The notes beneath the pieces are model-generated. The model was not told the origin of the DNA. It did not search any database and worked only from the letters and a program-made list of their open reading frames with translations. A program made the position numbers and the translations under genes. A stretch of 32,000 nucleotides of DNA from Delftia acidovorans NBRC 14950 (GTDB lineage Bacteria > Pseudomonadota > Gammaproteobacteria > Burkholderiales > Burkholderiaceae_C). Shown one piece after another: positions 9,600 to 24,575 of the stretch. The DNA lies in the NCBI RefSeq assembly GCF_001598795.1, contig NZ_BCZP01000009.1, positions 240,001-272,000 on the forward strand, given 5' to 3'. How positions within the stretch are numbered: the first letter of the stretch is position 1; each line of letters begins with the position of its first letter.

Positions 9600-9638
9600 A
9601 ACCGAAGGCCAGGCCGGCCGCATCCAATGCGACGCCTG

Positions 9639-10444: not shown

Positions 10445-11019
10445 TGCATGCACTCTCTCAGGGCACGCAGTCCGCGTTGAACCCAGGCCTTGACCGTACC
10501 AAGCGGCGCCTGCACACGCGCCGCAATTTCGCTGTGGCTGCAGCCGTCCACGTAGGCGTGCAACAGGCAGGCGCGGCGCTCGGGCTCCAGCCGGTCGAGG
10601 CAGTCGCCAAGACGACCCAGCGTCGCCTGCCGCTCCCATTCACTGCCGCCTTCCTTCCAGGCCAAAAGTGCGGCCTGGGCGTCATGCGCTTCATGGGCCG
10701 TTTCATCCAGCACGGTTTCGCGTGCGCCATCCCGTACACGGTTGAGGGCGGCGTGCCGCACCACGCTGTAGATCCACCCTCGACCACTTCCGCGATTGCC
10801 GTCGAAGGTGGATGAGCGGTTCCAGATGGAGACAAACGCATCGTGCAGCACGTCTTCCGCAGCGGCGCGCTCGCGGACGATGCGCAGTGCCACGCCGAGG
10901 AGAAAGCGCGCCTCGGCCTCATAAATCCGCTGCAAAGCATCGCGTTCGCCGCGTGCACATGCATGCAATGCTGCGTCATGGTCGAAAGCTTCGTTGTTCT
11001 GGGAGGCAGCGGGCGGCAC
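10441..11019 (-). CDS. ECF (extracytoplasmic function) sigma-70 family factor
   Basis: 192 aa. Region 2 reads DVLHDAFVSIWNRSSTFD...WIYSVVRHAALNRVR. Region 4 reads CLLHAYVDGCSHSEIAARVQAPLGTVKAWVQRGLRALRE. The only in-frame start near the N-terminus is GTG at 11019 and there is no clear SD, so the exact start is uncertain. Confidence 0.88.
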   Translation of the reverse strand: MPPAASQNNEAFDHDAALHACARGERDALQRIYEAEARFLLGVALRIVRERAAAEDVLHDAFVSIWNRSSTFDGNRGSGRGWIYSVVRHAALNRVRDGARETVLDETAHEAHDAQAALLAWKEGGSEWERQATLGRLGDCLDRLEPERRACLLHAYVDGCSHSEIAARVQAPLGTVKAWVQRGLRALRECMQ

Positions 11020-11084
11020 GAAATGGAGCGAAGGGGGCGTTGCAGGAAATCCTTCGCCCAGTGTATCCGCGCCGCTGCCGGCTC

Positions 11085-11657
11085 TTACATGGGCTTCCAG
11101 AAGATGTAGTCGGCCTGGTACTTCACGGTGGTCTTCTGGCCCTTGTTGGCGGCCATGCAGGGCTTGTCAGCCGGCGCCACTCCACCCTGGAGCGCCACGC
11201 GCTGGATGTAGCTCACACCCTCCAGCGCGCCGCTGCCCATGGCTGGGTTTGCCTTCACCAGCTGGTAAGGCAGATTGCCTGCGCCGGACGGCGCCACAGC
11301 CAGCTGGGTGGCGGTGAGTTTGGAGCCGTCGTTGGCCTCCCAGGTTGCGGGGGGACCGTAGTAGCGGCCCACTTGTTTGCCCATGCGGTCCTTCAGCACA
11401 GCATCGGGTCCCACAAAGACCCATTCCGTCTGGCCAGGCGCGTTGGCCTTGTCGCGGCACTCGTAGGTGATGTCACCGCTGCCTACGGTCTCCCACGCGA
11501 CCTTGTTCCCTGCAGGAACCTGGATGGGGGCGGGCAGCGATGCCTGGGAGAAAGTGCTGGCCGGCTTGTGCATCGAGCCACAGGCAGCGAGCAGGGCCGC
11601 TGTGGCTACAGCGAAAGAAACGGCGGCGGTGCGGGATGCGGAACGAGAGGTCAACAT
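11085..11657 (-). CDS. DUF3455-family secreted lipoprotein
   Basis: Start MLTSRSASRTAAVSFAVATAALLAACGS carries a lipobox (LAAC), with GGAGA 7 nt upstream. The mature part has VPAGNKVAWETVGSGDITYEC...WVFVGPDAVL...GRYYGPPATWEANDGS...YIQRV, as I remember for DUF3455 proteins that sit next to SigK-type ECF pairs. Confidence 0.72.
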   Translation of the reverse strand: MLTSRSASRTAAVSFAVATAALLAACGSMHKPASTFSQASLPAPIQVPAGNKVAWETVGSGDITYECRDKANAPGQTEWVFVGPDAVLKDRMGKQVGRYYGPPATWEANDGSKLTATQLAVAPSGAGNLPYQLVKANPAMGSGALEGVSYIQRVALQGGVAPADKPCMAANKGQKTTVKYQADYIFWKPM

Positions 11658-11987
11658 TGCGATTCTCCAAACAGTTTTGTGAAGGGGACTGAAGCAGCGC
11701 ATTTTTGGGCTGCTGCTGGTACTACCCGCCATCGCATCGTTTGGATGCACCCCATGCAAAAATATTTTCGACAAATGCCAGCGCCAGACTCCATCAGACT
11801 GCGGTTGGTGACATTCTTGACCTGCAGCACCCGGGCCACCTCTCCCGAGGCGCGCGGCTCCCAGTAGGCCACGCGGCCGGTGAGCCAGGGCAGGGGAGAG
11901 AACTTGACGCCTGCTTCCCAACCATCATTGATGGAGGGCCTGAGGTTGCGATCCTGCGTGCGGCAGGCGTCGATGCCCGAGCCGATC

Positions 11988-12935
11988 TCAAAGATGGGCG
12001 AGCATGTCCTTTGACGGAACGAAGAAGGCAATGCCTGTCACCGCCGCCGAGAAGTCAAGGATGCGGTCATGGAGCGGGGGCGGGCTTCCGATGAACATCC
12101 GTTCGAGCATCTGCTCGATCACCCACAAGTGCCTGGAATAACCGATGAAATAGGTCCCGTACTCCTTGAGTGCAGGCCTCGCGAAGGGCATGTTGTCTCG
12201 CAGGATGTCGTGCTCGACGCCGTCCTGCGTGATGGTGCACAGCGTCTTGTGTGACTTCTGTTCCGCCTCCGAGGCATCGGGAAGCTCGGTGTTGGTGAAC
12301 TTCTTTCGTCCAATGATCTGCTCCTGGGCTTCGGTGCTCAGGCTTTTCCATGCCGGGAGGTCGTGGAGGTACTTCTGTACAACGACATAGCTTCCGCCCG
12401 CATGTTCAGGATCTTCCTCGCCCACTATCGTTGAGGCCGGCAGCGCCAGGCCGACTGGATTCGCCGTGCCATCGACAAAATCCAGCAGGTCGCGTCCGTC
12501 GAAGTACCGGAATCCGGCGACCTCATCCATGTCCGCGACTGTCCCTTCCAGGGCCTCCAGGAGCATCTGCTCGAACGCCACGATGAGATCCATGGACCTG
12601 GCGCGGATGTGGAACAGCAGGTCCCCCGAAGTAGAGACTGCCACATGGGTGGCGCCCCGGATTTCGCGGAATGGATGGAGCTCGGCTGGAAGCGGGGTAC
12701 CGACAAGCGGACCCCACACATCGGCACCGATGCCCACGTTGCAGGTAAAGGTCCCGGTCACGTCCCGTACAAGGACGTTCTTGATCAGGCCGTCCAGATC
12801 GCCGAGCACGGATCGCACGGTGGAGAGGGACGCTGCGTCTCTTGCAACGGTCAGGACCAGGAAGGATGCGGCGATCGACAGCGCTGCATCAATTTGCTGG
12901 GGCTCGGCCTGGCGCGGGATCGTAGGTGTGGTCAT
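11988..12935 (-). CDS. Dye-decolorizing (DyP-type) haem peroxidase
   Basis: 315 aa with FRYFDGRDLLDFVDGTANP (GxxDG motif), GGSYVVVQKY, GRKKFTNTEL, ILRDNMPF and GTYFIGYSR. There is no signal peptide. GC content is visibly lower than in flanking genes. Confidence 0.9.
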   Translation of the reverse strand: MTTPTIPRQAEPQQIDAALSIAASFLVLTVARDAASLSTVRSVLGDLDGLIKNVLVRDVTGTFTCNVGIGADVWGPLVGTPLPAELHPFREIRGATHVAVSTSGDLLFHIRARSMDLIVAFEQMLLEALEGTVADMDEVAGFRYFDGRDLLDFVDGTANPVGLALPASTIVGEEDPEHAGGSYVVVQKYLHDLPAWKSLSTEAQEQIIGRKKFTNTELPDASEAEQKSHKTLCTITQDGVEHDILRDNMPFARPALKEYGTYFIGYSRHLWVIEQMLERMFIGSPPPLHDRILDFSAAVTGIAFFVPSKDMLAHL

Positions 12936-12986
12936 TGGAAGTACCGGCAGATGGACGAGATGGGCGTCAGGGATGGCGCATTATCT

Positions 12987-13013
12987 GGCCCAACCGGCCC
13001 AACCGGCCCAACC
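12987..13013. repeat. Tandem 9-mer (ggcccaacc) x3 plus a partial fourth unit
   Basis: Read directly: ggcccaacc ggcccaacc ggcccaacc ggcacc. It lies 52 nt upstream of the DyP start codon (minus strand), in intergenic DNA. Confidence 0.85.
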
Positions 13014-13029
13014 GGCACCAGGAGCAACA

Positions 13030-13350
13030 TCACGGACGGTTTCGCCAGATCCTCACTCCCATTTTTTCGGCATCTTCCCGGTACTCCTGGATTTTCTGCT
13101 TCAGGTACTCCTGCAGCGGCCTGCCGACCAGGGAGTAGGGGTACAGGTCGAAGTTCTCCAGAAGTGCCATATAGCCAGGAAGGCCCATCGCCTTTTGCAA
13201 GGTCTCGGACCAGTAGCGTATTGCCGATGGAGGCGTGCCTGCCGCCATATAGAGACCCCTGACGGTCATCTGGGTCACATCGACGCCTTGCTCCGTTGCG
13301 GTCGGGATGTGCGCGAGTTTTCCGGGTACGCGGATAATCGCATCGGGATT
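13030..13350 (-). pseudogene. C-terminal fragment of a Bug/TctC-family periplasmic tricarboxylate-binding protein
   Basis: The in-frame translation PDAIIRVPGKLAHIPTATEQGVDVTQMTVRGLYMAAGTPPSAIRYWSETLQKAM...LQEYLKQKIQEYREDAEKMG matches the last ~105 aa of Bug proteins (...PT..EqG......w.G...p.GTP...). An in-frame stop at 13351-13353 removes the rest. Degraded upstream pieces may extend to about 13600. Confidence 0.6.
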
Positions 13351-13665
13351 TCAAGAGTAAATCATGCGGTGCGAAGTGTTCGATTTACGGCTGACTGCAT
13401 CGACGCATCCCTGTACCGTGCGCGGCCATGGATACACCGTCGTTTCGCAGCCAGCACATGCCAGTTCGCCCTTCCCAGGAGCTCCCGTTCTTAGGGCGTG
13501 ATCCGCTGGACCATGGCTGTGCGATCGCTGGGCTATGTCGAGTAACGTCTGCATGGTCGCCCTCTGCGCTAGCAGAACTTCGCCAGCCACGACGGTCAGC
13601 CATTGCCGAAGTAGTTCAGTTACGGTCGGTGAACTTAGCCTTCACGTCTTACGTGACTGAGCGGG

Positions 13666-14202
13666 TCAAGCACGAGCACTTATAACCAGCGCTTCAAGAT
13701 CAAGTAGAAATGACCTGATTTGTGACTCGTTCTCGGGTAGGCATAGAAACTTCACTGCGTCTTCCGGGGATTTCCCAATGAGCGGGATACGCAAAAACAG
13801 ATGTTCAAGAAAATTGCTGCTTACGGTCGAAAGTACCAGCCTCAGCGAAGCCAACATATCGTCACCTCGGTGCGATGCATGTACCAAGGCAATCGGCTTG
13901 CCGATCACTTCGACGCGTGAAACCAACCAGTCGATTGCATTCTTGAGGCCGCCGGGAATTGCACGGATGTATTCGGGGCTCGAGATGATGATGCAATCGT
14001 GTGCGCAGACAATTTCCAGGAATTCACGCACGGCCATGGGCGTTCTCTCCCCTTGCGCATCCGGCGAGAAAACGGGTAGTGCCTGGAGACCATGAAAAAC
14101 TGAGACATCAATGCCCAGCGGCGCCAGGTTTTTCATGGTTTGCAACAACGTCGTATTCGTGGATGCTTCGCGCGTACTGCCTGAAATAGCCAGGATTTTC
14201 AT
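13666..14202 (-). CDS. NADPH-dependent FMN reductase family flavoprotein
   Basis: MKILAISGSTREASTNTTLL...IIISSPEYIRAIPGGLKNAIDWL is the classic FMN_red pattern. AAAGAGGA lies upstream. The gene is markedly AT-richer than its neighbours. Its ATG overlaps the stop of the upstream MFS gene (ATGA at 14199-14202). Confidence 0.85.
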   Translation of the reverse strand: MKILAISGSTREASTNTTLLQTMKNLAPLGIDVSVFHGLQALPVFSPDAQGERTPMAVREFLEIVCAHDCIIISSPEYIRAIPGGLKNAIDWLVSRVEVIGKPIALVHASHRGDDMLASLRLVLSTVSSNFLEHLFLRIPLIGKSPEDAVKFLCLPENESQIRSFLLDLEALVISARA

Positions 14203-15398
14203 GATGTCCTCTTTGCTTGCCAAGCATCGGCCATGCCGGGCCGGCGTCCGGACCATGGCAGGCAGGCGCACAGCGCGATCAGGCCCAGCACCAATACCGC
14301 GCCTCCAAGCACGCCGAGGCCCGTACCGAAGGCCGCGCTCACGCCCATCGCCACCAGCGCTGCGCTGCCGATCTGACAGAACCCGACCAGCCCCGATGCA
14401 GTGGCCGCATGCCCGTGTTCGCTGGCGATGGCCCCGGACACGCCCAGCGACAGCGACGAGCCATTGGAGAGACTGACCAAGCACATCGGCAGCACCACGG
14501 CTGCCGCGCCCTGCAGCCCCGATTCCACCACGGCCGCGAATGCCACGCCGCCAAGCACGAAGCACACGACGCCGGCAAAGAGGATGCGGTCGTAGGGCCA
14601 GCGATCAAGCAGCTGCCTGGCAAGCAGGTTCGCGCCGATGATGCCCGCCGTCAGCGGCAGGTACAGCCAGCCGCTTTGTTCCTCGCTCAGCCCTTGGCGC
14701 GCAAAAAGAAACGGCGACTGGGTCAGGTAGACGAACCAGGCGCAATAGATCGCGCAGACCACCAGCGTATAGCGGCGAAAAATCCGGTCCCGCAGAACAT
14801 GACTGAAGCCAGCAAAGGGCGCGGTGCGGGTACGGGCGGCAGAGGGAAGCGTTTCCGGCAGCCACTTCATCACCATCAGCAGAGCCACGACGCCAAACGC
14901 AGCGACGAACAGGAAGTCAGACCGCCAGCCGAAAGCCGCAGCCAGGTGCCCGCCGATGGCAGGCGCCAGGGCGGGCGACAGCGACACCAGCGGGTAGATC
15001 ACCGCATAGACCTTGGCAGAGGTACGTTTGTCGCAGGTGTCGGCGATCAGTGCCCGGCCCACGACCAGGCCCGCAGCCGCGCCGACCGCTTGCAGCATGC
15101 GCCACGCCAGGAAACCGTTGTAGCTGGCGGAGATGGCGCAGCCCACCGAGCCGACGATGTAGAGAGCGATGCCAGCCAGCAGCACGGGCTTGCGGCCATT
15201 GCGATCCGACAGCGGGCCGTAGGCCAGCTGGGCAATTGCCAGTGCCAGCAGGTAGAACGAGACGGTCTGCGGCATCTGCCAGTCGGCAACGCCAAACTCC
15301 GTGGCCATGCCCGGCATGGCGGGCAGATAGACGTCCGACGCGATCAGGCCGAAGGCACTGAGCATGGCGACGGTCAAGGTGAAAGATAAGCGAGGCAT
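14199..15398 (-). CDS. MFS efflux transporter, Bcr/CflA drug-resistance subfamily
   Basis: SDVYLPAMPGMATEFG, LAYGPLSDRNGRKPVLLAG and 12-TM hydrophobic periodicity. The start at 15398 (MPRLSF...) is preferred, with an alternative ATG at 15461. Confidence 0.85.
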   Translation of the reverse strand: MPRLSFTLTVAMLSAFGLIASDVYLPAMPGMATEFGVADWQMPQTVSFYLLALAIAQLAYGPLSDRNGRKPVLLAGIALYIVGSVGCAISASYNGFLAWRMLQAVGAAAGLVVGRALIADTCDKRTSAKVYAVIYPLVSLSPALAPAIGGHLAAAFGWRSDFLFVAAFGVVALLMVMKWLPETLPSAARTRTAPFAGFSHVLRDRIFRRYTLVVCAIYCAWFVYLTQSPFLFARQGLSEEQSGWLYLPLTAGIIGANLLARQLLDRWPYDRILFAGVVCFVLGGVAFAAVVESGLQGAAAVVLPMCLVSLSNGSSLSLGVSGAIASEHGHAATASGLVGFCQIGSAALVAMGVSAAFGTGLGVLGGAVLVLGLIALCACLPWSGRRPGMADAWQAKRTS

Positions 15399-15499
15399 GG
15401 CAGTTCCTGGCAGCCAGGCGAACGGGCTGCGCGTCAAGGGTTCAGAAGGGATGAGCGCCATGCTACGGAGCTGCCTTCAATGTGAAAATGCACAAAATA

Positions 15500-15514
15500 G
15501 CAGCCTATAGCTGC
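15500..15514. promoter_or_regulatory. Candidate LysR-type operator dyad in the divergent MFS/LysR promoter region
   Basis: gcagc-ctata-gctgc is a perfect 5-bp dyad inside a larger imperfect palindrome (aaatagcagcctatagctgcatattt). It lies 30 nt upstream of the LysR ATG in an AT-richer spacer. No binding data are available. Confidence 0.3.
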
Positions 15515-15543
15515 ATATTTGCAGTACGAGCAATGGGGCAGCG

Positions 15544-16413
15544 ATGAATTGGGATGACGTGCGGATATTCCTGGCAATCCACCGTGCAGGCACCCTGCGT
15601 GGGGCGGCTCAGCAACTGGCCATCGACCAGACCACGGTGGGCCGGCGCCTGGCCGGGCTGGAGCGGTCGCTGGGCAGCCGGCTGTTCCTGCGCACCACGG
15701 GCGGCCTGGTGCTGGCCGGAACCGGCCAGGAAGTGCTGCGCATGGCCGAAGACATGGAGCGCATGGCCGTCTCCTTCGAGCGCCGCGGCGAAGGTGCCGA
15801 TGCGCGTGTGGCCGGGGAGGTGCGTGTGACCACCACCGACGCCTTGGCGGTGGATTTCGTGGTTCCCGCCCTCGAACACCTGCGTGCCCGCCATCCCGAG
15901 GTGCGGGTGATCCTGAGCACCACGAGGCGCCAGCTCGATCTAGCGCGACGGGAAGCCGACATTGCTGTCCGCACCCTGCGGCCGGAGCAACCGGACCTGA
16001 TCGTTCGCCAACTCGGCTGCTGGGAAGTGGGCTTGTACGCTACCGAAGGCTATCTGGCAAAAAATGGGGAACCGCAGCCCGGAAAAGGCTTTGCAGACCA
16101 CGACATCGCGCTCTACCAGGAGGGTGTGACCGGCCGGCAGGACGACACGCTGGCAGGTGAATCCAGGGCACAGGGTCGCATAGTTGCCGAACTGGATTCG
16201 AGCCTGATGCTTGCGACCTTCGTGCGCGCTGGCCTGGCCCTAGGCGAATTACCCGAATACGTGGCCCGACGCGACCCCACGCTGGTCAGGATGTGGCCGC
16301 AGTGCCAGCGGGCCAAGCCCTACGAGGCGTGGTTGGTGTTGCACCAGGACCTGGCGCGCACGGCCAGGGTGCGTGTCGTAGTGGAGTCGATCACCGCGGC
16401 TTTCGGCGATTGA
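15544..16413 (+). CDS. LysR-family transcriptional regulator (divergent from the MFS pump)
   Basis: MNWDDVRIFLAIHRAGTLRGAAQQLAIDQTTVGRRLAGLERSLGSRLFLR is a canonical LysR wHTH. A substrate-binding domain follows. Confidence 0.9.
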   Translation: MNWDDVRIFLAIHRAGTLRGAAQQLAIDQTTVGRRLAGLERSLGSRLFLRTTGGLVLAGTGQEVLRMAEDMERMAVSFERRGEGADARVAGEVRVTTTDALAVDFVVPALEHLRARHPEVRVILSTTRRQLDLARREADIAVRTLRPEQPDLIVRQLGCWEVGLYATEGYLAKNGEPQPGKGFADHDIALYQEGVTGRQDDTLAGESRAQGRIVAELDSSLMLATFVRAGLALGELPEYVARRDPTLVRMWPQCQRAKPYEAWLVLHQDLARTARVRVVVESITAAFGD

Positions 16414-16526
16414 AAGGCAGACATGTGCAAGCCACATATTTGATTTGGGTGGCGACGGCCGAGAGGCGATAAGGACGAGCAGCGTTTCATCTTCGAACAA
16501 TGAACTGAGCTGCGGGCAGTTCAGAT

Positions 16527-17655
16527 GTGAGCACCGAGGTGAGTGCTACGACCTTGGTCGTGGCCAAGCGCTTGGCGGATTCGGTGCGCGAATGGATCAA
16601 GCGCAATGAGTCCGATGAGGCTGTACCAGGGGACTCGAAGAACGATCGGCTATTCGACACCTGGCAGGACCATGGCGTCATCGACCTGAACCCGGCTACC
16701 GGGCAGGCTATCTGGCATGTGACAGTGCAAGGAGAGGCATCCGAAGCTGCGGCAGATCGAGGAGGTTATGAGCACGACCTGGCCATGCTGCGATTTCCCT
16801 TGGCCAAGGTCTTTTCGCACGAGAGCAAGTATCCGGCGCCCATGCAAGGCAGATTGGTCCTGCGGCAAAAACGCAAGGATGAGGCCGGTGAGGGCGCTGC
16901 CTCACAGCAGGCCGTGCAGCTGCAGATTCCTGCGGCAGGTTCTGGTGGTAAGGAGGATGCGGCAGGCCATGCACCCGAAGTTGCAGCATTACCAGCCAGT
17001 GCTCGCGCGCCTGCAGCTGCTCCCAAGGTGCCCAGCAAGCAGGAATTGAAGCTTGCGGCAGTCATGCGTGAACCGGCATTCAGGGCGCCACCTGGTACGG
17101 CAAAGCGGCCTGCGGCGAAATCCGAACGCGGAACCGGCGATGCGACCGAAGAAAGGCCCACGGCCGCCGAAGCCGGCGCGGGCCAGGGAGGAGGGCGGTG
17201 CGATGCGCGAGCAATCATCGGAAGCTGCCGCAGGCCTGGACGAGGCCCCGGCTTCGCCAGAGCCTCCAGCACCGCCTACCGCCCAAATTCTTTCATCCGA
17301 AACTGCCGCAATACCCACTGAGGCGGCCATGACACGCACGCCTGTATCCGCGGCAACGAAGCGCCATATGAGCGTAGCTGCGGAGTTTCGGAGCTTGAGC
17401 GACGAACTCGATGACTTGCCACCGGTCGTGGTGCGTTCCAGGACGGAGCCGCAGGCTTCACGCGCGGATGAGCCCCAGCCGGTGCTGCTCTTGCAGCAAC
17501 GACTCAAGATCGAAGGCCAGGAAAGGCCTGCGCACGAGCCCAGCGAGTTGGCGTTGGACTTCATGCGGTGGGTACAGCAGGGCTTGGTCGATCGTGCGTG
17601 GTTCTGGTGGAGCTTGGTCTGGAGTGGCTTGCGCAATCCTCATCAGGTGTTCTGA
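16527..17655 (+). pseudogene. Remnant of an ICE relaxase (MOBH / PFL_4751-type TraI): N-terminally truncated, frameshifted, C-terminally truncated
   Basis: Two overlapping ORFs in frames 0 and +1 (16527-17321 and 17053-17655). The first has ...LFDTWQDHGVIDLNPATGQAIWHVTV...LAMLRFPLAKVF. From memory this resembles the region after the HD domain of ICEclc/PFGI-1-type TraI (...VLQDHG.L.P..DGKAIW..TV...). An Ala/Pro/Glu-rich linker follows. The second ORF ends with LALDFMRWVQQGLVDR, which resembles the very start of the TraI_2_C domain, then terminates. The only start is GTG. The HD-domain part is absent. Confidence 0.5.
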
Positions 17656-17826
17656 AAGCTTAGCGCTGGAGTCAACGAAGAAACTTCTGAACATAACGTC
17701 CGCATAGTTGGTGAATGCTACCGATATGAGTCGCTTTAAAGCTCACTTTTCTGGCCGTCATTTGATTGATACGATGTATATTATGTTAAATAACAAACGC
17801 AGATAACGGCCTGAAAACCAAGTCAT

Positions 17827-17858: not shown

Positions 17859-20057
17859 TCAGCTGTTCAAGGCGGTTTCCAGGCCTTCAAGCTCCTGCTT
17901 CAGCAAAAGCGCAGTTTCCTGTGGCTCGAACTGACGCTGCAGCAGCGGGATGGTGAAGACGTAGCTTGCATCGTGCACGCCGTGGGTTTCATCGCGGCGC
18001 AGGACGTAGGCCAGTTGCAGGCGCGCCAGGGACCGGCGCAAGGCCTGGGCCTGGCCGGTGGCGCCGTGGGACTGGACCAGGGCGTCGAGTGCGGTCAGGC
18101 TGGTCTGTCCTTGCTGGGCCGTGTGATAGACGGCGATGCGGTCCAGGCGGCAGGCCTGTTCGTCGGTGCTCAAGCGGCCCCATCCCACCAGCGCGTCCTG
18201 CACGGGCTGGGATGCCATGGCCTGGCGCAGGTGGCGTTCTTCGATGACGCGTTCGTCGGGCCCCAGGGCTTCCAGGCATTCCTGGCAGAGGATGGCGACC
18301 AGGTTGGCGCGCCTGCCGCTGGCCTCTATCAGCCGCTCGGCCAGAGCGTCGTTGGCAAAGCCCAGGCGCAGCCTGCGCAGCGGTTCGGTGGCCAGGGCGT
18401 GACATGCCGCTGGCTCCAATCCACCAATGGCCAGGATTTCGCCGAAGTTGCGCAGCGGCGATTGGTAGTCGAGCAGCGCTGCCGCGTACAGATCCCAGAA
18501 TCCCGCCAGCATGAACCAGCAACGGCCCTCCTCGCTCAGCGCGCGCAAGGCGCTGAGCTGGGGGTAGCCATTGCGGGCTTCGTCGCGGAAGAACAGGTCG
18601 GCCTCGTCGATCAGCAGGTACAGCCGCCTGCCCTGCGACTGCTTTTGCAGGTGTTCGATGATGGCCTCCAGCGGTGTTTCCACGGGAAGGCCGAACTGCG
18701 TGGCCAGGCGCGGCGTAAGGCGGTGGTCGCGCAGCGAGATGTAGTGGCAGGCGATGGCCGGATGCTCCTGCAGCCGCCGCTGCACGGCCTTGAGCAGGCT
18801 GCTTTTGCCGAGCTGGCGTCCTCCCACGACCAGGTAGTTGGCCGGTTCGCGGTTGAGCACGCGGGCCAGCAGGCGCTCGCGGCCAAAGAAAACGTCCTCG
18901 CGCGTCACGCCGCCGCGCGTCTGGTAGGGCGATATGCGCGTGACCTGCAGCTGCGTGGCCAGCAGCCGCAGCAGCACCTGGTCCGGAGCGCCGCCCAGCA
19001 GCCATTCGGTCTGCCCCGGGCTGTCCAGCAGCACGTGCAGGTTGGCGCGGTCCTGGGCATGGCGCTGCAGCAGCGGCATGGGCGACTGGGGATGGTGCGA
19101 GCTCACGATGAGCACCACATCGCCGCCGGTTTGCAGCAGGCGCAGCTGGCGCACGAGTTCGCCCTCTTCCAGCTCCGCTGGGGGCGCATAGACCAGGCAA
19201 CGGCCCAGGGCGATGGGCAGCTCGGGCGGCAGCGTCCACTCGAACATGTCGCCGGGCACGGGCCACTCGCCTTGCGCCGGTTTGCAGACGGCGGACAGGC
19301 GTTCGGCCAGCGCCCGCACGCGGGCGCCTGGGCTTGCGCCGGCAAGGCGCAGGGCCCGCTGCCAGTCCGGCGGGCGTATGCCCGCAGCGCGCAAGACGGC
19401 GGAACGGCGGCCGGTGAGCTGCAGCAGCCGGTCCAGCTGGGGCAGATGCTGGTAGGGCTTGCGGCGCAGGCGCTCGGGCTTGAGCTGTGCCGGGCCTATC
19501 AGCGGATGGCGCACCAGCCACAGCAGGGCCAGGCAGCCAAAGACCAGTGCGCTGGTCCAGATGACGCTGCGCAGCCATCCAAAGGGTTCATGCTCGGGCT
19601 GGCCCGGCGAGGGGCTGCAGTTCAGCGGCAGGTAGCGCGGCGGAGTCGGAGGCAGGCCGCCCTGGCAGCTCCAGTCCCAGCGTTGCCTGTCCAGTTGCAG
19701 CAGGACCTGGGTTCCGGCGAGCACGCCCATCTGGCTGTCGCGCACCACGTCCGCCTGCAGCACGAATGGACTGGGCGAGCTCATGCGCACGCGTGGTTCG
19801 GCAATGTCCGGCGCCACGCTGGCCAGGTCCTGCGGCCAGCTTTCATGCTGGCGCACATAGTCCATCAGGGCCAGGCGCCACAGGATGATTTCGTTCCAGA
19901 CCCGGCCCGAGCTTTCCGCGCCCTGCAGGCTGCTGCGGGTGACGGGGTTGTAGCGGGGCAGCAGGATGGCCGTGCCGATGAACAGCGTGACCAAGGCGAG
20001 CAGCGCGGCGCGCCACCAGGATCTGGGCAGTTGCACAAGCCGACCCAGGCCGCTCAT
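17859..20057 (-). CDS. Two-TM membrane protein with a pilin-like Cys-pair ectodomain and a cytoplasmic Arch_ATPase/ORC-like AAA+ ATPase (uncharacterised architecture)
   Basis: 732 aa. TM1 is residues ~14-33 (WWRAALLALVTLFIGTAILL). The ectodomain is ~34-160 and ends ...RWDWSC(131)QGGLPPTPPRYLPLNC(147). TM2 is ~161-182 (WLRSVIWTSALVFGCLALLWLV). It has FFGRERLL-x-...VVGGRQLGKSS (Walker A, nt 18801-18824) and GRRLYLLIDEAD (Walker B, nt 18597-18617). Amino-acid composition is protein-like, whereas the antisense 781-aa ORF looks like a shadow. Confidence 0.8.
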   Translation of the reverse strand: MSGLGRLVQLPRSWWRAALLALVTLFIGTAILLPRYNPVTRSSLQGAESSGRVWNEIILWRLALMDYVRQHESWPQDLASVAPDIAEPRVRMSSPSPFVLQADVVRDSQMGVLAGTQVLLQLDRQRWDWSCQGGLPPTPPRYLPLNCSPSPGQPEHEPFGWLRSVIWTSALVFGCLALLWLVRHPLIGPAQLKPERLRRKPYQHLPQLDRLLQLTGRRSAVLRAAGIRPPDWQRALRLAGASPGARVRALAERLSAVCKPAQGEWPVPGDMFEWTLPPELPIALGRCLVYAPPAELEEGELVRQLRLLQTGGDVVLIVSSHHPQSPMPLLQRHAQDRANLHVLLDSPGQTEWLLGGAPDQVLLRLLATQLQVTRISPYQTRGGVTREDVFFGRERLLARVLNREPANYLVVGGRQLGKSSLLKAVQRRLQEHPAIACHYISLRDHRLTPRLATQFGLPVETPLEAIIEHLQKQSQGRRLYLLIDEADLFFRDEARNGYPQLSALRALSEEGRCWFMLAGFWDLYAAALLDYQSPLRNFGEILAIGGLEPAACHALATEPLRRLRLGFANDALAERLIEASGRRANLVAILCQECLEALGPDERVIEERHLRQAMASQPVQDALVGWGRLSTDEQACRLDRIAVYHTAQQGQTSLTALDALVQSHGATGQAQALRRSLARLQLAYVLRRDETHGVHDASYVFTIPLLQRQFEPQETALLLKQELEGLETALNS

Positions 20058-21304
20058 GCCTGCAGCACCGCCACGGCGGCTTCGCGGGCAATGTCGCAGC
20101 GCCAGTGCAGATGGGCACCCTCACCTGCTCCGCGCACCTGCAGCAGATTGCCCCAGAACAGGCGCCGCAGCACGGCATCCTGCAGATAGGGGCGTGCACG
20201 GCCCAGCGATGCCGCATCCACCAGCCCGCGCAGTTGCTCGCGCGTGGCAGGTTCCTGCGCCAGGGGCAGCAAGGTCTGCCACAGGCGGGCGCTGGCCACC
20301 AGATGGGCGCGCAGCAGGGGCGAGTGCACGGAAGCGACGCCCACGCCCTGCTCCATCAGCCATTGCAGCGCTTCCTCGAAAAGCGCGGGATGCCCGCCCG
20401 TCAGCGCCTGCAATGCCTCGATGACCTCGGCCGGCCAGGCCGTGCCGGGCCAGCGCTGGTGCGCCATCAGGGCCAGGTCTTCCAGCGTGGGATCGGGCCA
20501 GTGGGCCACCTGGCCGATGTTGAGCAGCGACAGGTCACCGCTGCGGTACTTGAGGTCGGCCAGGGCCTCGCTGCCGCACAGCAGCAGGTGCAGGCGGCCG
20601 CTGTGCATTTCGCTGAGGCTGCGCAGAATGCCGGCCAGTGTCTCGCGCAGCTGCGCCGTGCCCTGCTCGAAGCGGCTGACCAGGCAGAACAGCCGGCCGC
20701 CGGCCAGCAGGCGCTTTTCCAGCAGGGCCTCGAATTCGTAGTCCGAGCCCACTTCGCCCAGCCCGCATTGCCGGCCCAGGGCCGCAAAGTAGTCGGCCGC
20801 AGCCGTGCTCACGCTGTAGGGCGGCTGGATGTGCAACACCGCCTCGGCGCCATACTGGGCGCGGGCGCGCAGCAGCAGTTCCTGGCGAAACGGGGGCTGC
20901 CCCCAGTGCGCGGGCGACAGCAGCATGGTGATGGCATAGGGCCGGGCATGGGCCAGCTGGGCGAAAAGCCGGTCCATGAAGCCTGCAAAAGGCTGGGCGC
21001 CAGCGGCGGCGGCCTGCAGCGGAAACTCCGTGGCAAAGCCAGCGGCGGAGAACAGGCGATTGGTCTCCGCCTCCGTCAGACGCAGGTACTGGGCGCAGGC
21101 GGCCAGCCGGTCGCGCGAGCGCGGATTGGGCAGGGAAACCCCATTCCTCCAGTTGTTGACGGCTTCCCGGCTCAGCCCGATCTCGGTGGCCACGCCCGAG
21201 GCGCTGGCGCGGATGCGGCGCATGTACAGCCCCAGCAAATGGCCGAAATCCTCGTGAACGCCTGGTGCCACGGCAGCTCCCTGTTCAATGGCGGTGGGCT
21301 GCAT
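20054..21304 (-). CDS. XRE-type HTH protein fused to a degenerate (P-loop-less) STAND/AAA-like domain
   Basis: 416 aa. The HTH is FGHLLGLYMRRIRASASGVATEIGLSREAVNNWRNGVSLP. The central region aligns by eye with the neighbour's ATPase core but has SPAHWGQPP instead of GGRQLGKSS and LVSRFE instead of LIDEAD. A TGGHPALFEEAL lid-like motif is present. Its stop overlaps the start of the 732-aa gene (ATGA at 20054-20057). Confidence 0.8.
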   Translation of the reverse strand: MQPTAIEQGAAVAPGVHEDFGHLLGLYMRRIRASASGVATEIGLSREAVNNWRNGVSLPNPRSRDRLAACAQYLRLTEAETNRLFSAAGFATEFPLQAAAAGAQPFAGFMDRLFAQLAHARPYAITMLLSPAHWGQPPFRQELLLRARAQYGAEAVLHIQPPYSVSTAAADYFAALGRQCGLGEVGSDYEFEALLEKRLLAGGRLFCLVSRFEQGTAQLRETLAGILRSLSEMHSGRLHLLLCGSEALADLKYRSGDLSLLNIGQVAHWPDPTLEDLALMAHQRWPGTAWPAEVIEALQALTGGHPALFEEALQWLMEQGVGVASVHSPLLRAHLVASARLWQTLLPLAQEPATREQLRGLVDAASLGRARPYLQDAVLRRLFWGNLLQVRGAGEGAHLHWRCDIAREAAVAVLQA

Positions 21305-21451
21305 CAGCGACGGCTCCGCTCAGGAAAACAGCGCCTGCTGGCGCAGATCCATCCTGCCGGGGCCATGGTCCGTATCCTCATCCTGTTCACCCTCTCCTGG
21401 GATTCAGCTGGTCTTGTGCAATTTGTTTCATTTTGCCGAGCGCGGATTGTC

Positions 21452-22273
21452 TCAGGATGCGGCATCGCCGCCACCCTGCCCCGCAAACTCCCGTCGCGCG
21501 CCGGCCATGCGGTACAGAGGCAGCACCACCGCCAGCACCAATCCCAAAGCCAGCCAGAACCACAGGCCCTTGCCTCTGAAGGCCAGGGCCGCAATGACGG
21601 TGAAGGCCACGGCCTCGCACAGCCCGCGAAAGCCGGCCCGCAGCATGAACAGCCCCACGATGCCCTGCACGGGCGACACGCCGCTCTTGCGCAGGCTGGC
21701 CATGGTGTCCAGCAGGGCCTGCACGGATTCCTGGGCCTGGCGGTCACGCTCCTGGTCCCGCTCGCGCAGCCGGGTGATGGCCATGGGCTGGGCCGGATTG
21801 GTCAGGGCGGTGCCGTCGGCGCCCTCTTCCTGGCCGGGCTGCGGATAGACCTCGCCATCCGTATCGACCAGCACCTGGCGCTCCGGGTAACGGGACAGCC
21901 AGGCGTGGTGGCTGACCCATTGGCCAGCATCGAAGTGGTAGCGCTCGCTCTCGCCCACCTGGTCGTAGAAGACATGCAGCACCGCCGCCTGCAGGCCGTG
22001 CTGGAACAGCGTCTCCAGCAATCGCCAGGGCATGCCGGCCGTGGTGCGGGTGTCAAAGCCCAGCTCCAGGTGCTGGGGATGGCCCAGGGCGCTGGCATTG
22101 GCCCAGTCGTCATCCCACAGCGCGGACCGGTCCAGGGCGGGGTCCAGCTCATGGATCCAGCGCTCGGCCTGCTCCCAGGACTGCCGGGCCAAGTACTGGC
22201 AGATCAGTTGCACGCGGCGCAGCTGCAGGGGCGTATCGAAGAAAAGATAGAGGTGATGGACGTTGCTGGACAT
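21452..22273 (-). CDS. Hypothetical membrane-anchored protein (soluble N-domain, charged linker, two C-terminal TM helices)
   Basis: The frame is open from 22504, but residues before MSSNVHHLYLFFDTPLQL (ATG at 22273) are Arg/Cys/Gly-rich and look non-coding. The C-terminus has GIVGLFMLRAGFRGLCEAVAFTVIAALAF and LWFWLALGLVLAVVLPLY. No family was recognised and there is no clear SD. Confidence 0.55.
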   Translation of the reverse strand: MSSNVHHLYLFFDTPLQLRRVQLICQYLARQSWEQAERWIHELDPALDRSALWDDDWANASALGHPQHLELGFDTRTTAGMPWRLLETLFQHGLQAAVLHVFYDQVGESERYHFDAGQWVSHHAWLSRYPERQVLVDTDGEVYPQPGQEEGADGTALTNPAQPMAITRLRERDQERDRQAQESVQALLDTMASLRKSGVSPVQGIVGLFMLRAGFRGLCEAVAFTVIAALAFRGKGLWFWLALGLVLAVVLPLYRMAGARREFAGQGGGDAAS

Positions 22274-22478
22274 GGCGGGCCTGAGGCGTTTGCAGGAATG
22301 CCGCGATTGTTCAATTGCAGCCGCCAGCCGGCCCTCCCAGGCCTGTCCAGCAGGCGGCTGGCAGGCGCTCCCACCGGTTGACATTCTGTCCACTGCAAGA
22401 AGCGGGATGCAGGCGCTGCGGCGGCGCCCTAGACTGCGGCAATTGCCCACAGCGCCCATACCGCCAACCGCGCCCGCC

Positions 22479-23210
22479 ATGCACAACCTCCGTCTTTTCG
22501 ACAACGAAGCTTGCGAATCCGCCCCGCCCGGCCACTGGACGCAGATGGAGCACCAGCTCGATGAGCAAGGCTGCGCGCGCCTGCCCGGCCTGCTGGATGC
22601 GCAGCAGTGCCGCGACCTGGCCGCTCTTTACGCAAGGGAGGACGGCTTTCGCTCCCGCATCGTCATGGCACGCCACGGTTTCGGGCGCGGCGAGTACCAA
22701 TATTTCGACTACCCCTTGCCACCGCTGCTGCAGCGCCTGCGCGAGCAGCTGTATCTGCGCCTGGCGCCGGTGGCCAATCTCTGGAACCAGCGCATGGGGC
22801 TGGAGGTGCGCTATCCGGACCGGCTGCAGGACTTCCTGGCGCGCTGCCACGCGCAGGGCCAGTTGCGGCCCACGCCGCTCATCCTTCAATACGGTGCGGG
22901 CGACTACAACTGCCTGCACCAGGATGTCTATGGAGAGCATGTGTTTCCGCTGCAGGTGGTGCTGCTGCTGTCGCGGCCCGCGCGGGACTTCACGGGTGGC
23001 GAGTTCGTCATCACCCAGGCCGATGGCGACCGGCAGCGGGCCGATGTGATGGCACTGGACCAGGGCGATGCGCTGGTCCTGGCCGTGCGCCACCGGCCCG
23101 TGCCCGGGCGGCGCACCGGCTACCGCCGCGTGGCCATGCGCCATGGGGTCAGCCGCATCCACAGCGGCCATCGCCATACCGTGGGGCTGATCTTTCATGA
23201 CGCACTTTGA
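22479..23210 (+). CDS. 2OG-Fe(II) oxygenase superfamily protein (COG3826 / 'Oxygenase-NA'-like, alkB-associated)
   Basis: MHNLRLFDNE... It has an HxD in CLHQDVYGEHVFPLQVVLLLSRPARDFTGGEFV, the distal His in MRHGVSRI, and Arg in GHRHTVGLIFHD. The family assignment is from memory of alkB-linked oxygenases. Confidence 0.75.
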   Translation: MHNLRLFDNEACESAPPGHWTQMEHQLDEQGCARLPGLLDAQQCRDLAALYAREDGFRSRIVMARHGFGRGEYQYFDYPLPPLLQRLREQLYLRLAPVANLWNQRMGLEVRYPDRLQDFLARCHAQGQLRPTPLILQYGAGDYNCLHQDVYGEHVFPLQVVLLLSRPARDFTGGEFVITQADGDRQRADVMALDQGDALVLAVRHRPVPGRRTGYRRVAMRHGVSRIHSGHRHTVGLIFHDAL

Positions 23211-23222
23211 TGGATGGCCGGT

Positions 23223-23873
23223 ATGAGCACGCTGGATCTTTTCGCCGATGAACATCCCACCGGGGCCGAATCCATAGGTCCGCAATCCGTGGTGCTGCGC
23301 GGCCATGCCCTGCCCCATGCCGTGCAGTTGCTGGAGGCGGTCGAAGGCATTGCGGCGCGGGCGCCGCTGCGCCATCTGGTTACGCCGGGCGGCTTCACCA
23401 TGTCGGTGGCCATGACCAACTGCGGCGCGCTGGGCTGGACCAGCGACAGGCGCGGCTACCGCTACAGCGCCATCGACCCACTCAGCGGCCAGCCCTGGCC
23501 GGCCATGCCGGCCGTGTTTGTCCGGCTGGCGGGCGAGGCGGCCGCTGCGGCGGGGTTCGATGGCTTTGTGCCCGATGCCTGCCTCATCAACCAGTACCTG
23601 CCCGGCACCCGGCTTTCCCTGCACCAGGACCGCGACGAACACGACCTGGGCGCGCCCATTGTCTCGGTGTCCCTGGGCATGCCCGCCACGTTTCTGTTTG
23701 GAGGACTGGCGCGGACAGACAGCACGGCCAGGGTGCCGCTGCAGCATGGCGACGTGGTGGTCTGGGGCGGTGTGGATCGGCTGCGCCACCACGGCGTGTT
23801 GCCGCTCAAGGACCAGCCTCACCCGCTGCTGGGCGGGCGGCGCATCAATCTCACTTTTCGCAAGGCGGGCTGA
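23223..23873 (+). CDS. alkB: Alpha-ketoglutarate-dependent DNA/RNA alkylation-repair dioxygenase AlkB
   Basis: MSTLDLFADE..., GWTSDRRGYRYS, PWPAMP, ACLINQYLPGTRLSLHQDRDE (HxD), VSVSLG, WGG..RLRHHGV and RINLTFRKAG match E. coli AlkB blocks. An alternative ATG lies at 23214. Confidence 0.9.
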   Translation: MSTLDLFADEHPTGAESIGPQSVVLRGHALPHAVQLLEAVEGIAARAPLRHLVTPGGFTMSVAMTNCGALGWTSDRRGYRYSAIDPLSGQPWPAMPAVFVRLAGEAAAAAGFDGFVPDACLINQYLPGTRLSLHQDRDEHDLGAPIVSVSLGMPATFLFGGLARTDSTARVPLQHGDVVVWGGVDRLRHHGVLPLKDQPHPLLGGRRINLTFRKAG

Positions 23874-24575
23874 ATGGTTGGACGGTCTGAAATGGATAGG
23901 CTCAACGGCCAGGATCGCTTCGCCCGCCTGGATTGGGCGCGGATTGCCGCTGAGCTCGATGCCGAAGGCCATGCCCGGCTGCCGCAGCTGCTGACTGCGG
24001 ATGAAAGCCGCGCCTTGGCCCGCGAGGCGGCAGCCGCGTCTGGCCTGCCGCCCTGCGTGCAGGCATGGCGCCCGGTGCTGTACGGGCATCTGCTGGCCCT
24101 GGCCAACCGCTGGCGCGAACACATGGGCATGATGCCTGGGTTGCCAGGCTGCTTCGAGGATTTCATGCGTCCGGGCCGGCAAGCAGGCCAAACGCAGCCA
24201 CAGCCACATCTGCTGCGCGTGCCGCAAGCGGGTCATGCCCCGCTGCGTTCATACAGCGAAGGTGCGGCGGTGTTTCCGCTGCAGCTGGTGCTGCTGCTGT
24301 CCCGGCCGGGCCAGGATTTCGAGGGCGGCGAATTCGTGATGACCGAGCAGCGCCCGCGCATGCAATCGCGCCCCATGGTGCTGCCGCTGGGCCTGGGGGA
24401 TGCGGCCATCATCGCCACGGGGCCGCGCCCGGTGCGCGGTGCGGCGGGCTTTTACCGCGTGCATCTGCGGCATGCCATCAGCCGCGTTCACCGTGGCGAG
24501 TGGCTGGGTCTGGAGCTGCTTTTGCACGACGTGCCCCAGGCGCCAAAGGCTCTGCAAACGGACCGCTGGCTATAA
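23874..24575 (+). CDS. Degenerate paralog of the 22479-23210 oxygenase (predicted catalytically inactive)
   Basis: It shares ARLPxLL and VFPLQLVLLLSRPGQDFEGGEFVMTEQ with the upstream paralog. However, it has PLRSYSEGAA where the paralog has CLHQDVYGEH (His and Asp both lost). It also has GEWLGLELLLHD where the paralog has GHRHTVGLIFHD. Its ATG directly abuts the alkB stop. Confidence 0.7.
   Translation: MVGRSEMDRLNGQDRFARLDWARIAAELDAEGHARLPQLLTADESRALAREAAAASGLPPCVQAWRPVLYGHLLALANRWREHMGMMPGLPGCFEDFMRPGRQAGQTQPQPHLLRVPQAGHAPLRSYSEGAAVFPLQLVLLLSRPGQDFEGGEFVMTEQRPRMQSRPMVLPLGLGDAAIIATGPRPVRGAAGFYRVHLRHAISRVHRGEWLGLELLLHDVPQAPKALQTDRWL

Follow-up and report, generated by a model that had tools for sequence, protein, structure and literature searches.

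A membrane-spanning STAND receptor with a pilin-like head and its inactive STAND partner in Delftia acidovorans: a putative envelope-to-transcription signalling unit

Gene content of the locus

The stretch of Delftia acidovorans NBRC 14950 analyzed here (32,000 nt; contig NZ_BCZP01000009.1, positions 240,001 to 272,000; hereafter the window) carries three consecutive genes on its minus strand, designated C, B and A in the direction of reading. Protein A is a receptor-like protein with two transmembrane (TM) helices, a pilin-like domain between them and a cytoplasmic nucleoside triphosphatase (NTPase); protein B joins a probable helix-turn-helix (HTH) domain to an inactive STAND module; and gene C, which codes for a small membrane protein, is preceded by a palindrome. 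The positions of all features are collected in Table 1. A preliminary description of this DNA, made from its sequence, had reported A and B as a two-gene arrangement coupled by an ATGA overlap. Both open reading frames (ORFs) and the overlap were recovered on the minus strand, but treating the locus as a pair had left out gene C and the upstream palindrome.

Table 1. Genes, domains and motifs of the C-B-A locus, in coordinates of the window
Feature	Position	Strand	Basis or remark
Gene A	17859-20057	-	732 aa; two-TM receptor-like nSTAND1 NTPase
Gene B	20054-21304	-	416 aa; probable XRE-type HTH and inactive STAND module
Gene C	21452-22273	-	273 aa; first gene of the unit; stop codon 21452-21454
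ATGA overlap of B stop codon and A start codon	20054-20057	-	sequence gcATGAgcgg
A residues 12-150, pilin-like module	19608-20024	-	AF2 model, family profile, Pfam
A residues 14-34, TM1 (equivalent of pilin alpha1-N)	19956-20018	-	
A C131...C147 pair in the periplasmic head	19617-19667	-	both Cys invariant
A residues 160-183, TM2	19509-19580	-	first element of the module shared superfamily-wide
A residues 184-370, juxtamembrane (R)HPLIGPxQLxPxRL, then helical and alpha/beta domain	18948-19508	-	conserved superfamily-wide
A residues 373-383, TRISPYQTRGG	18909-18941	-	near-invariant peptide in a segment modelled as disordered
A residues 386-545, nucleotide-binding domain	18423-18902	-	Pfam, alignment, AF2, Foldseek
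A Walker A, GGRQLGKSS	18798-18824	-	invariant in 27 sequences and in WD40-type relatives
A Walker B, LLIDEAD	18597-18617	-	invariant in 27 sequences and in WD40-type relatives
A residues 546-732, helical and winged-helix domains, helical tail, no repeat array	17862-18422	-	AF2, Foldseek
B residues 19-87, five-helix HTH domain with invariant stretch MRRIRASASGVATEIGLSREAVNNWRNG	21044-21250	-	Pfam, PHROG, AF2
B residues 106-416, inactive STAND module (NBD-like, helical, winged-helix)	20057-20989	-	Foldseek, invariant degenerate motifs
B LSPAHWGQPP, at the Walker A position	20891-20920	-	invariant in the family as LSxAHWGQPP
B FCLVSRFEQG, at the Walker B position	20660-20689	-	invariant
B GGHP (STAND GxP motif)	20387-20398	-	invariant
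C residues 214-254, membrane hairpin	21512-21634	-	
15-bp palindrome TGGACAGAATGTCAA (consensus TTGAC-R-NNN-Y-GTCAA)	22378-22392	-	candidate operator, 119 nt upstream of the C ATG

Genes A and B overlap by 4 nt in the window, in Acidovorax and in Massilia, and by 16 nt in Pseudomonas. In the TIR-type relatives described below the partner and receptor genes likewise overlap, within the range of 4-16 nt seen with the other genera. Protein A is 100% identical to a protein of GCA_000741825.1, and proteins B and C are 99% identical to proteins of D. acidovorans and Delftia sp. Cs1-4. The A/B DNA is also covered by long plus-strand ORFs, which are shadow ORFs of the kind usual at 68-70% GC. No sigma-70-like sites were detected in a promoter scan, and a terminator scan returned 3 terminator-like hairpins against a chance expectation of 2.3. 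Between C and B, 27 nt before the B ATG, a short GC hairpin is followed by TGTTTTCC (21331-21344, minus strand); it carries no weight, because shuffled sequence yields equally many such sites.

A probable pilin homologue at the N-terminus of protein A

Hydropathy analysis placed hydrophobic helices at residues 15-33 and 164-182 of protein A. The N-terminal side of TM1 and the segment after TM2 are arginine-rich and positively charged; residues 35-150 are therefore predicted to be periplasmic, and the NTPase cytoplasmic. The AlphaFold2 (AF2) model of A, with a mean predicted local distance difference test (pLDDT) of 78, contains one helix over residues 12-71, another over residues 160-183, a helical and alpha/beta region over residues 194-369 and predicted head strands at residues 90-96, 99-104, 117-123 and 128-133, with pLDDT 78-91 across the pilin-like module.

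A profile of the ectodomain (residues 1-160, 26 relatives) was searched against all PDB sequences. The top ten matches were exclusively type IVa pilins (best E 8e-4), Neisseria PilE and the P. aeruginosa PAK pilin among them. The alignment begins at pilin residue 6; in it P34 falls on pilin Pro22, the WP motif is retained and RYLPLNC lies opposite KHLPSTC of the disulfide loop. Pfam Pilin (PF00114) matched 13 of the 26 relatives, with a best value of 7e-8, and left protein A of the window itself unmatched. W74-P75, G115, C131 and C147 are invariant in the ectodomains of the 27 aligned sequences (48-91% identity). The profile matches thus identify the ectodomain as a probable pilin homologue, which would be placed in the membrane and periplasm like an unassembled type IVa pilin. 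The membrane-anchored, pilin-like P-loop protein with a Cys pair that had been noticed earlier is borne out by hydropathy, the AF2 model, the pilin profile and the invariant Walker motifs.

In the alignment of 27 sequences and in the pilin profile alignment, protein A has no conserved G/F prepilin cleavage site, no leader peptide and no Glu5. When P34 is set on Pro22, A17 occupies the Glu5 position and the invariant R16 falls at position 4. A salt-bridge role of R16 as a stand-in for pilin Glu5 was considered and dropped on this register of the hidden Markov model alignment. The absence of the cleavage site and of Glu5, together with a second TM helix after the head, argues that the pilin-derived head is not a filament subunit.

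The cytoplasmic module of protein A

No match to residues 184-370 was obtained in profile searches of the PDB and Pfam, in agreement with the cytoplasmic region of about 200 aa that had been left without assignment. A PD-(D/E)xK core was considered for this mid domain but not assigned; the order of strands and helices is similar, but no catalytic motif is conserved. The peptide TRISPYQTRGG that follows has a pLDDT of only about 28, yet its pairwise identity is 76%, and in WD40-type relatives it is conserved as VTRISPYQTxGG. It is a candidate docking or regulatory site.

Pfam matched residues 386-589 of A to AAA_22 (4.7e-8) and, at a borderline score of 29.0 bits against a gathering cut-off of 27.1, to nSTAND1 (PF20703); AAA_14, AAA_16, ATPase_2 and ORC-CDC6-like gave weaker matches. 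The nSTAND1 score is higher in relatives, reaching 86.6 bits in protein P0334 and 41.7 bits in the receptor of locus L104. In the AF2 model, residues 430-520 reach pLDDT values of 84-92. Foldseek comparison with the PDB returned archaeal ORC2/Cdc6 (4e-9), the Pyrococcus Arch_ATPase PAB2304 (TMt 0.59) and resistosomes of plant nucleotide-binding leucine-rich-repeat receptors (NLRs). An NTPase fold had been proposed for residues of about 385-600, and modelling and structural search agree on one of the ORC/NLR type. R536, in an invariant SPLRNFG before strand 5, is a candidate arginine finger.

Protein B and its degenerate STAND module

The AF2 model of protein B (pLDDT 83, predicted template modelling score, pTM, 0.71) contains HTH helices at residues 20-30, 35-42, 46-53, 61-74 and 78-87. 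The pLDDT of this block is mostly 80-90, with a dip to 68. PHROG 638, a family of transcriptional regulators, matched the HTH at 0.003, and Pfam HTH_3 matched B at 0.04, below its cut-off. Foldseek matched the rest of B to ORC2 (1w5t, 4.6e-9) and also to Cdc6, NRC/ZAR-type NLRs, Apaf-1 and MalT (8bob). Neither Walker A nor Walker B is present in the family alignment of B. R220 or R228, both invariant across all partner types, is a candidate arginine finger. An XRE-type HTH followed by an ATPase-like core devoid of Walker motifs, as first read from the sequence, is thereby supported: the HTH is probable, and the dead STAND fold is given by Foldseek.

When the profiles of A and B were compared with hhalign, the probability was 6.7% (E 0.005); the Walker B, sensor-1 strand and GxP positions nonetheless align. 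According to the models, A and B share a fold class of the ORC/Cdc6/NLR type. The earlier naming of B as an inactive paralog of A therefore stands in part: an inactive protein of the same fold class is found, and "paralog" is too strong a word because the two profiles barely match.

Gene C and the palindrome upstream of the operon

The start of C was set at M78 of a 350-aa ORF because the N-terminus MSxN..L.LFF is invariant in the family alignment. In the protein, an acidic linker joins the soluble N-terminal domain to a two-helix membrane hairpin at the C-terminus; no match was obtained in Pfam, PADLOC, PHROGs or the PDB. C lies upstream of B on the same strand in 55 of 92 loci. In some Lysobacterales an unrelated small membrane protein of 240-266 aa, designated C2, takes its place between the palindrome and B (L081 5934-6665; L092 1702-2424; L090 231-953; L080 5486-6286). 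C2 also has a soluble N-terminal domain, with at least two C-terminal hydrophobic helices per protein, and PADLOC did not match it.

The palindrome of the window is the sole match to the consensus within 32 kb, where 0.04 would be expected by chance. The search across loci required a spacer of exactly 5 and allowed at most 1 mismatch, and it covered 76 loci with enough upstream sequence (1.1 Mb). A palindrome stands upstream of the operon in 64 of the 76, and its density elsewhere in the same loci is 0.016 per kb. Its position follows the gene order. Where C is present, the palindrome lies 106-158 nt before the C ATG and not between C and B; where nothing stands ahead of B, it lies 195-260 nt before the conserved MRRIRAS motif of B; and where C2 is present, it lies about 1 kb before that motif. 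Another palindrome, GCTGTACAGC, found upstream of B in a k-mer search, was rejected as an operator; it is the coding 3' end of gene C.

The HTH of B is invariant across the taxa that bear the palindrome, and B is therefore the obvious candidate binder. On this pattern of conservation, the HTH of B is predicted to bind the palindrome upstream of the operon, with TTGACATTCTGTCCA as its target DNA.

In some lineages large DUF4132 proteins (969-1246 aa) are encoded by 1-3 genes after A on the same strand (L068 10118; L069 10165; L072 10196; L066 10170-18118). These loci belong to Massilia, P. paralcaligenes, P. turukhanskensis and one metagenome-assembled genome. Further copies of the palindrome lie exactly at the A stop codon, before the first downstream DUF4132 gene, in L068, L069 and L072; the Massilia locus L066 has no palindrome there despite its DUF4132 genes, so that three of the four such loci have it.

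On the other side of the palindrome, a plus-strand cluster (22479-24575) encodes an Oxygenase-NA protein, an AlkB-like 2-oxoglutarate (2OG)-Fe(II) oxygenase and a second Oxygenase-NA protein. The palindrome could affect this cluster too.

Linkage, distribution and genomic context

Protein A was found in 175 of 185,579 species when one genome per species was scanned. Among the hosts are Comamonadaceae (Delftia, Acidovorax, Hydrogenophaga, Simplicispira and others), Oxalobacteraceae (Undibacterium, Massilia), the Pseudomonas nitroreducens/otitidis group and Lysobacterales (Tahibacter and others). A scan of metagenomes yielded at least 10 loci. In all 92 loci, from four orders of beta- and gamma-proteobacteria, B lies immediately upstream of A on the same strand, so that the adjacency which the preliminary description had put forward for checking holds throughout.

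Of the two proteins, B is in every case the more conserved (for example 74 vs 64% and 55 vs 48% identity), and it is 54-76% identical across orders. By region, the mean pairwise identity is 77% in the nucleotide-binding domain (NBD) of A, 75% in the HTH and NBD-like parts of B, 38% in the pilin head and 31% in TM2. Such a gradient is the pattern expected if a variable sensor were mounted on a fixed signalling core.

In Delftia the locus has a constant left flank, made up of gene C, the cluster of Oxygenase-NA and AlkB-like 2OG-Fe(II) genes, and TonB/Fec genes. Past the A stop codon, the DNA varies beyond about 100-150 nt, and holds a remnant of an integrative and conjugative element (ICE), a filamentous prophage or no insert. 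An intact TraI_2 gene is present in L010, filamentous prophages in L008 and L009, and a CheW gene with a methyl-accepting chemotaxis protein (MCP) gene, without insert, in L007 and L013. In the window, an insert of 8.15 kb (9610-17760) replaces the CheW and MCP genes found after A in other Delftia. Its cargo comprises genes for an RskA-like anti-sigma factor, a DyP peroxidase, a flavin mononucleotide (FMN) reductase, a major facilitator superfamily (MFS) transporter and a LysR regulator, and fragments of TraI_2 lie at 16557-17138 and 17188-17595, next to an AT-rich junction. No tRNA that might have served as integration target is present in the window. Comparison by blastn with three other Delftia genome types placed the ICE junction at 17706-17761, with A and B on the conserved side. 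A and B as part of the ICE were rejected on this result; the pair is not ICE cargo and lies on the core side of an integration hotspot. The earlier view of the pair as accessory DNA beside a decayed ICE relaxase does not hold, since within Delftia neither the pair nor its left flank varies, and variation is confined to the DNA beyond about 17706-17761.

Outside Delftia, A and B are flanked by housekeeping genes, among them metH, cti, gyrA and opp. The HTH/pilin branch is thus not set in defence islands, and in Delftia the pair is not carried as ICE cargo; these are the two settings in which enrichment had been considered. A search of PADLOC-DB 2.0, which includes Avs, found no system model that covers A and B; the only match of A was PDC-S01 (E 1e-3, 15.9 bits), and B had none. 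To this extent the statement that the pair matches no named system was correct.

The filamentous prophages of L008 (12739-18609) and L009 (12739-18948) are inovirus-like, follow directly after A and carry Phage_DNA_bind, RepSA/G2P and Zot genes. Their position may be a coincidence of the integration hotspot, or may be relevant to a pilus-related sensor. Proteins with ankyrin repeats (476 aa) and with leucine-rich repeats (about 486 aa) are encoded on the same strand 34-62 nt downstream of A in L014 (10197-11627), L015 (2350-3810) and about 12 further Acidovorax loci. Proteins of these two kinds are uncommon in bacteria. They might be adaptors or sensors acting in trans for A, a STAND protein without repeats.

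A wider family of transmembrane STAND receptors

A search of 1.84 billion representative proteins with the profile of A returned 4158 relatives, 2374 of them at E <= 1e-10 and 481 at E <= 1e-30, and the cytoplasmic half of A stands behind other ectodomains in at least 481 protein clusters. Among 148 listed representatives that were re-analysed, only 12 are of the pilin type. Non-pilin relatives align from TM2 onward only, through YRHPL(V/I), the mid domain, TRISPYQTxGG, the NTPase and the C-terminus, and their N-terminal regions (median 491 aa) are unrelated. These regions mostly consist of a signal peptide and one or two WD40 propellers; tetratricopeptide repeats (TPR), or no such region at all, also occur. 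In 111 of 121 non-pilin relatives the shared module is immediately preceded by a hydrophobic 19-mer.

The genes upstream of these receptors, which often overlap them, encode partners with a TIR_2 head (L093, L094/95, L098, L111) or a Trypsin_2 head (L104). Compared by hhalign, the module behind these heads matches the dead STAND module of B with a probability of 100% (E 6e-52, 38% identity), and the motifs LLSQA..GQ, SRFEHG and GGHP are kept. A partner homologous to B, with a TIR, trypsin or HTH head, lies beside the receptor in 6 of 8 distinct non-pilin loci. Two relatives have no adjacent partner. In Candidatus Parabeggiatoa an HTH partner accompanies a receptor without ectodomain, and the idea that HTH partners occur only with pilin-type receptors was rejected on this case. 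As TIR and trypsin domains replace the HTH on B-like modules, the HTH is placed in the output position. PADLOC matched only the TIR and trypsin heads of these sister systems (ThsB, SAVED_TIR, LmuA), and the receptor and dead-STAND module were unmatched.

These alignments suggest a family grammar, in which a variable extracytoplasmic domain and one TM helix are followed by a fixed mid domain and nSTAND1 switch, and a separate dead-STAND subunit carries a swappable head. A and B are then one branch of a large and apparently undescribed family of membrane-spanning STAND receptors. Membership of this family, with its TIR and protease partners, is a part of the picture that the preliminary description had not seen.

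Two loci of the family deserve separate mention. The Candidatus Parabeggiatoa locus (L108 1-13716) has as neighbours restriction-modification genes (RE_XamI and a methylase), a gene for an AAA_15/AAA_21 protein, and XisI/UPF0175, and this context looks more defence-island-like than that of any locus of the pilin branch. In L111 (3895-9876) the WD40-type receptor (P0299, 1993 aa) has two tandem cytoplasmic modules after the TM helix, and a caspase gene (Peptidase_C14) lies divergent from the TIR partner.

Proposed mechanism and alternative explanations

The genes C-B-A are interpreted here as one autoregulated envelope-to-transcription signalling unit, which would operate on the STAND/NLR principle across the inner membrane. 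We put the probability of this interpretation at about 0.5. The unit probably reads a cue related to the type IV pilus. A would be the receptor, with a pilin-like head that lies in the membrane and periplasm and can be neither cleaved nor polymerised, and its second TM helix would pass the signal to the mid domain and the active nSTAND1 NTPase. B would be the output subunit; its dead STAND module would dock on the NTPase module of A, and its N-terminal HTH would bind TTGAC-N5-GTCAA upstream of the operon. The cue at the pilin-like module may be a pilus-borne invader, or an alteration of the pilus machinery or of the pool of pilins in the inner membrane, and it would drive a nucleotide-dependent assembly of A. 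This assembly would alter the oligomeric state or the availability of B, and the altered B would change transcription of C-B-A and, in some lineages, also of the downstream DUF4132 genes. The domain anatomy and predicted folds, the constant linkage of B to A, the superfamily with its exchangeable ectodomains and partner heads, and the conserved palindrome are what the analysis shows; the contact between A and B, the binding of the palindrome by B, the nature of the cue and the sign of regulation are what we infer. An envelope or pilus sensor NTPase with a DNA-binding inactive partner was also the working hypothesis of the preliminary description, and the same reading is reached here from anatomy, linkage and comparative genomics.

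Several results weigh against the signalling unit. The match of Pfam HTH_31 to B residues 19-84 (E 8.4e-5) scores 23.2 bits against a cut-off of 27 and is sub-threshold, and the best PDB sequence match of this HTH has an E of only 0.12, with no close solved relative. The inter-domain geometry of A is poorly determined in the AF2 model (pTM 0.38). No palindrome occurs within 2.2 kb in 12 of the 76 loci, although 5 of these have one farther upstream. In the window the palindrome sits in a divergent intergenic region of 205 bp shared with the AlkB-like cluster, so that another Delftia regulator could use it. Finally, the TIR and trypsin heads of the sister systems point to killing effectors and not to gene regulation.

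The evidence is divided between two purposes of the unit, defence on the one hand and pilus homeostasis or pilus-state signalling on the other. Defence is suggested by the heads of the sister systems (TIR, protease), by the rapid evolution of the ectodomain and by the small membrane proteins, which could be effectors. The core-like location, the very slow evolution, the HTH output and the lack of a defence-island context point to signalling. A bolder proposal is that the HTH branch belongs to an unrecognised class of transmembrane NLR-like receptors that watch the periplasm or the cell surface and not the cytoplasm, and that the pilin acts as a "decoy" which detects pilus-dependent phages or pilus retraction at the inner membrane, at or before genome entry. 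This proposal is tentative, and we hold it possible at distinctly less than even odds.

The most serious alternative is an anti-phage or anti-invader system, in which the pilin-like head would be a decoy for pilus-dependent phages or their adsorption proteins and the assembly of A would trigger harm, either through C or C2 induced by B or through the HTH acting on invading DNA. The nSTAND1 clade was defined in predicted counter-invader systems (PMC8195603), and the TIR_2 and Trypsin_2 heads of the sister systems are closest to the PADLOC defence effectors ThsB, SAVED_TIR and LmuA. One relative lies beside a caspase and another beside restriction-modification and AAA_15/21 genes; within A the ectodomain evolves fastest; the first position of the operon is taken by either of two small membrane proteins, C and C2, which are unrelated; and in some Delftia a filamentous prophage is integrated right beside the pair. 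The HTH/pilin branch itself, however, lies outside defence islands, among metH, gyrA, cti, the AlkB-like cluster and TonB/Fec genes, and it keeps one fixed position across the three Delftia genome types examined. The identity of 54-76% that B retains across orders is unusually slow evolution for a defence gene, the pair has no PADLOC model, and C has no similarity to known pore-forming effectors in searches of PADLOC and the PDB. An anti-phage function is accordingly considered somewhat unlikely, at little more than one chance in four.

A housekeeping accessory of type IV pili or of the type II secretion system is a weaker candidate. Here a pseudo-pilin would dock in the assembly platform, the NTPase would be a chaperone or checkpoint, and B would merely set expression. 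The homology of the ectodomain to major type IVa pilins (P22, the WP motif, the disulfide of the D-region) and the stable, core-like locus agree with this view, and all host taxa of A belong to groups known for type IVa pili. Against it, the 92 neighbourhoods are without exception free of pil and gsp genes, and the same cytoplasmic module stands behind WD40 domains, TPR or no ectodomain, which argues against a mechanical role specific to the pilus. The STAND fold, moreover, serves switching and oligomerisation, and pilus motors are ATPases of the PilB/PilT type. Such an accessory role is improbable.

That B is an ordinary repressor of a neighbouring operon and A an unrelated ATPase, adjacent by hitch-hiking, is very improbable: XRE-type regulators often head unrelated operons and the direct sequence similarity of A and B is weak, but the 92/92 adjacency, the overlapping codons in the window and in three other genera examined, the B-homologous partners in 6 of 8 distinct non-pilin loci, and a dead STAND module in B as conserved as the active one in A speak against it.

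Significance

To our knowledge, the bacterial STAND/NLR-like sensors of known mechanism (Avs, bNACHT) all detect their trigger inside the cytoplasm. A variable sensor outside the cytoplasmic membrane would, if true, make this family a bacterial counterpart of surface pattern-recognition receptors, and the family splits switch and effector onto a pair of active and dead STAND proteins. Anatomy and comparative genomics, both read from sequence, suggest that A and B are a variant of the STAND theme of sensor, switch and effector. For work on the family, the HTH/pilin branch offers the best starting point: its hosts include culturable Delftia, Acidovorax and Pseudomonas, and its predicted operator allows a reporter readout. 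Its pilin-like head suggests pilins, pilus machinery and pilus-dependent phages as candidate ligands. If the proposed function is true, the unit would add a third, non-kinase route by which cells read the state of the type IV pilus.

Comparison with known systems

In open-access text, the supplementary architecture tables of the Aravind group aside, no description was found of a STAND NTPase joined through a TM helix to a pilin-like or other extracytoplasmic domain, or of the partner family of B.

The head of A is predicted to resemble type IVa pilins (PilE, PilA; PF00114) in its alpha1 helix with Pro22, its alpha-beta roll, its four-stranded sheet and its disulfide loop ending in LPxxC. It differs from them in being followed by a second TM helix and 550 cytoplasmic residues, and in having no leader peptide, G/F site or Glu5. 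PilS and PleC read inner-membrane pilins through contacts of TM helices and alter expression or signalling (PMC7196804, PMC5979040, PMC6058289). They give a precedent for the sensing of membrane-resident pilins, but are histidine kinases without a pilin-like domain; A itself carries the pilin homologue, together with a STAND NTPase and a dead-STAND HTH output.

In MalT, the LAL family and AfsR/SARP a STAND ATPase switch is coupled to a DNA-binding domain as well, and MalT (8bob) is among the fold matches of B. In each of those regulators one soluble protein unites the active ATPase, the DNA-binding domain and a sensor at the C-terminus, whereas here DNA binding (B) and the membrane-anchored ATPase (A) are separate. 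Avs, bNACHT and nSTAND1 conflict proteins share the switch of NBD, helical and winged-helix domains, the logic of sensor, switch and effector, and, with the sister systems, TIR and protease effectors; nSTAND1 has been named as a counter-invader STAND clade (PMC8195603). Avs and bNACHT each consist of one cytosolic polypeptide, whose effector is N-terminal and whose C-terminal repeat sensor binds phage proteins in the cell. In A, the sensor is N-terminal and extracytoplasmic and there are no C-terminal repeats, and the effector, here an HTH, resides on a separate dead-STAND subunit.

The plant paired NLRs RRS1/RPS4 may serve as an analogy, as they are a linked STAND pair in which one member is signalling-incompetent alone and an integrated domain mimics a pathogen target. 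There is no homology beyond the NTPase fold, and the decoy reading of the pilin-like head is speculation. Dead STAND modules (iSTAND, iSTAND2) are known from MoxR-vWA systems (PMC7159879), but no MoxR or vWA gene of the iSTAND ternary system occurs in any annotated neighbourhood.

The closest organisational analogue of A/B is the two-gene operon of nSTAND2, in which an active STAND protein is accompanied by one that is eroded and bears GT4 or HEPN heads (Kaur, Iyer, Burroughs & Aravind 2021, eLife e70394; PMC8195603). The nSTAND2 family stands near CR-ATPases and S29/Dap3, whereas A scores as nSTAND1; no nSTAND2 model was among the Pfam matches of A at E <= 1, the presence of such a model in the library being unconfirmed. 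The active subunit is here a membrane protein with an extracytoplasmic domain, a feature not mentioned for the nSTAND2 operon. A conserved arginine finger in both subunits belongs to the features of that operon; the candidates here are R536 in A and R220 or R228 in B. In both systems two neighbouring genes code for STAND modules, of which one is active and the other has eroded motifs for NTP binding, and in both the inactive module carries variable heads: GT4 or HEPN in the nSTAND2 operon, and HTH, TIR_2 or Trypsin_2 in the family of A and B.

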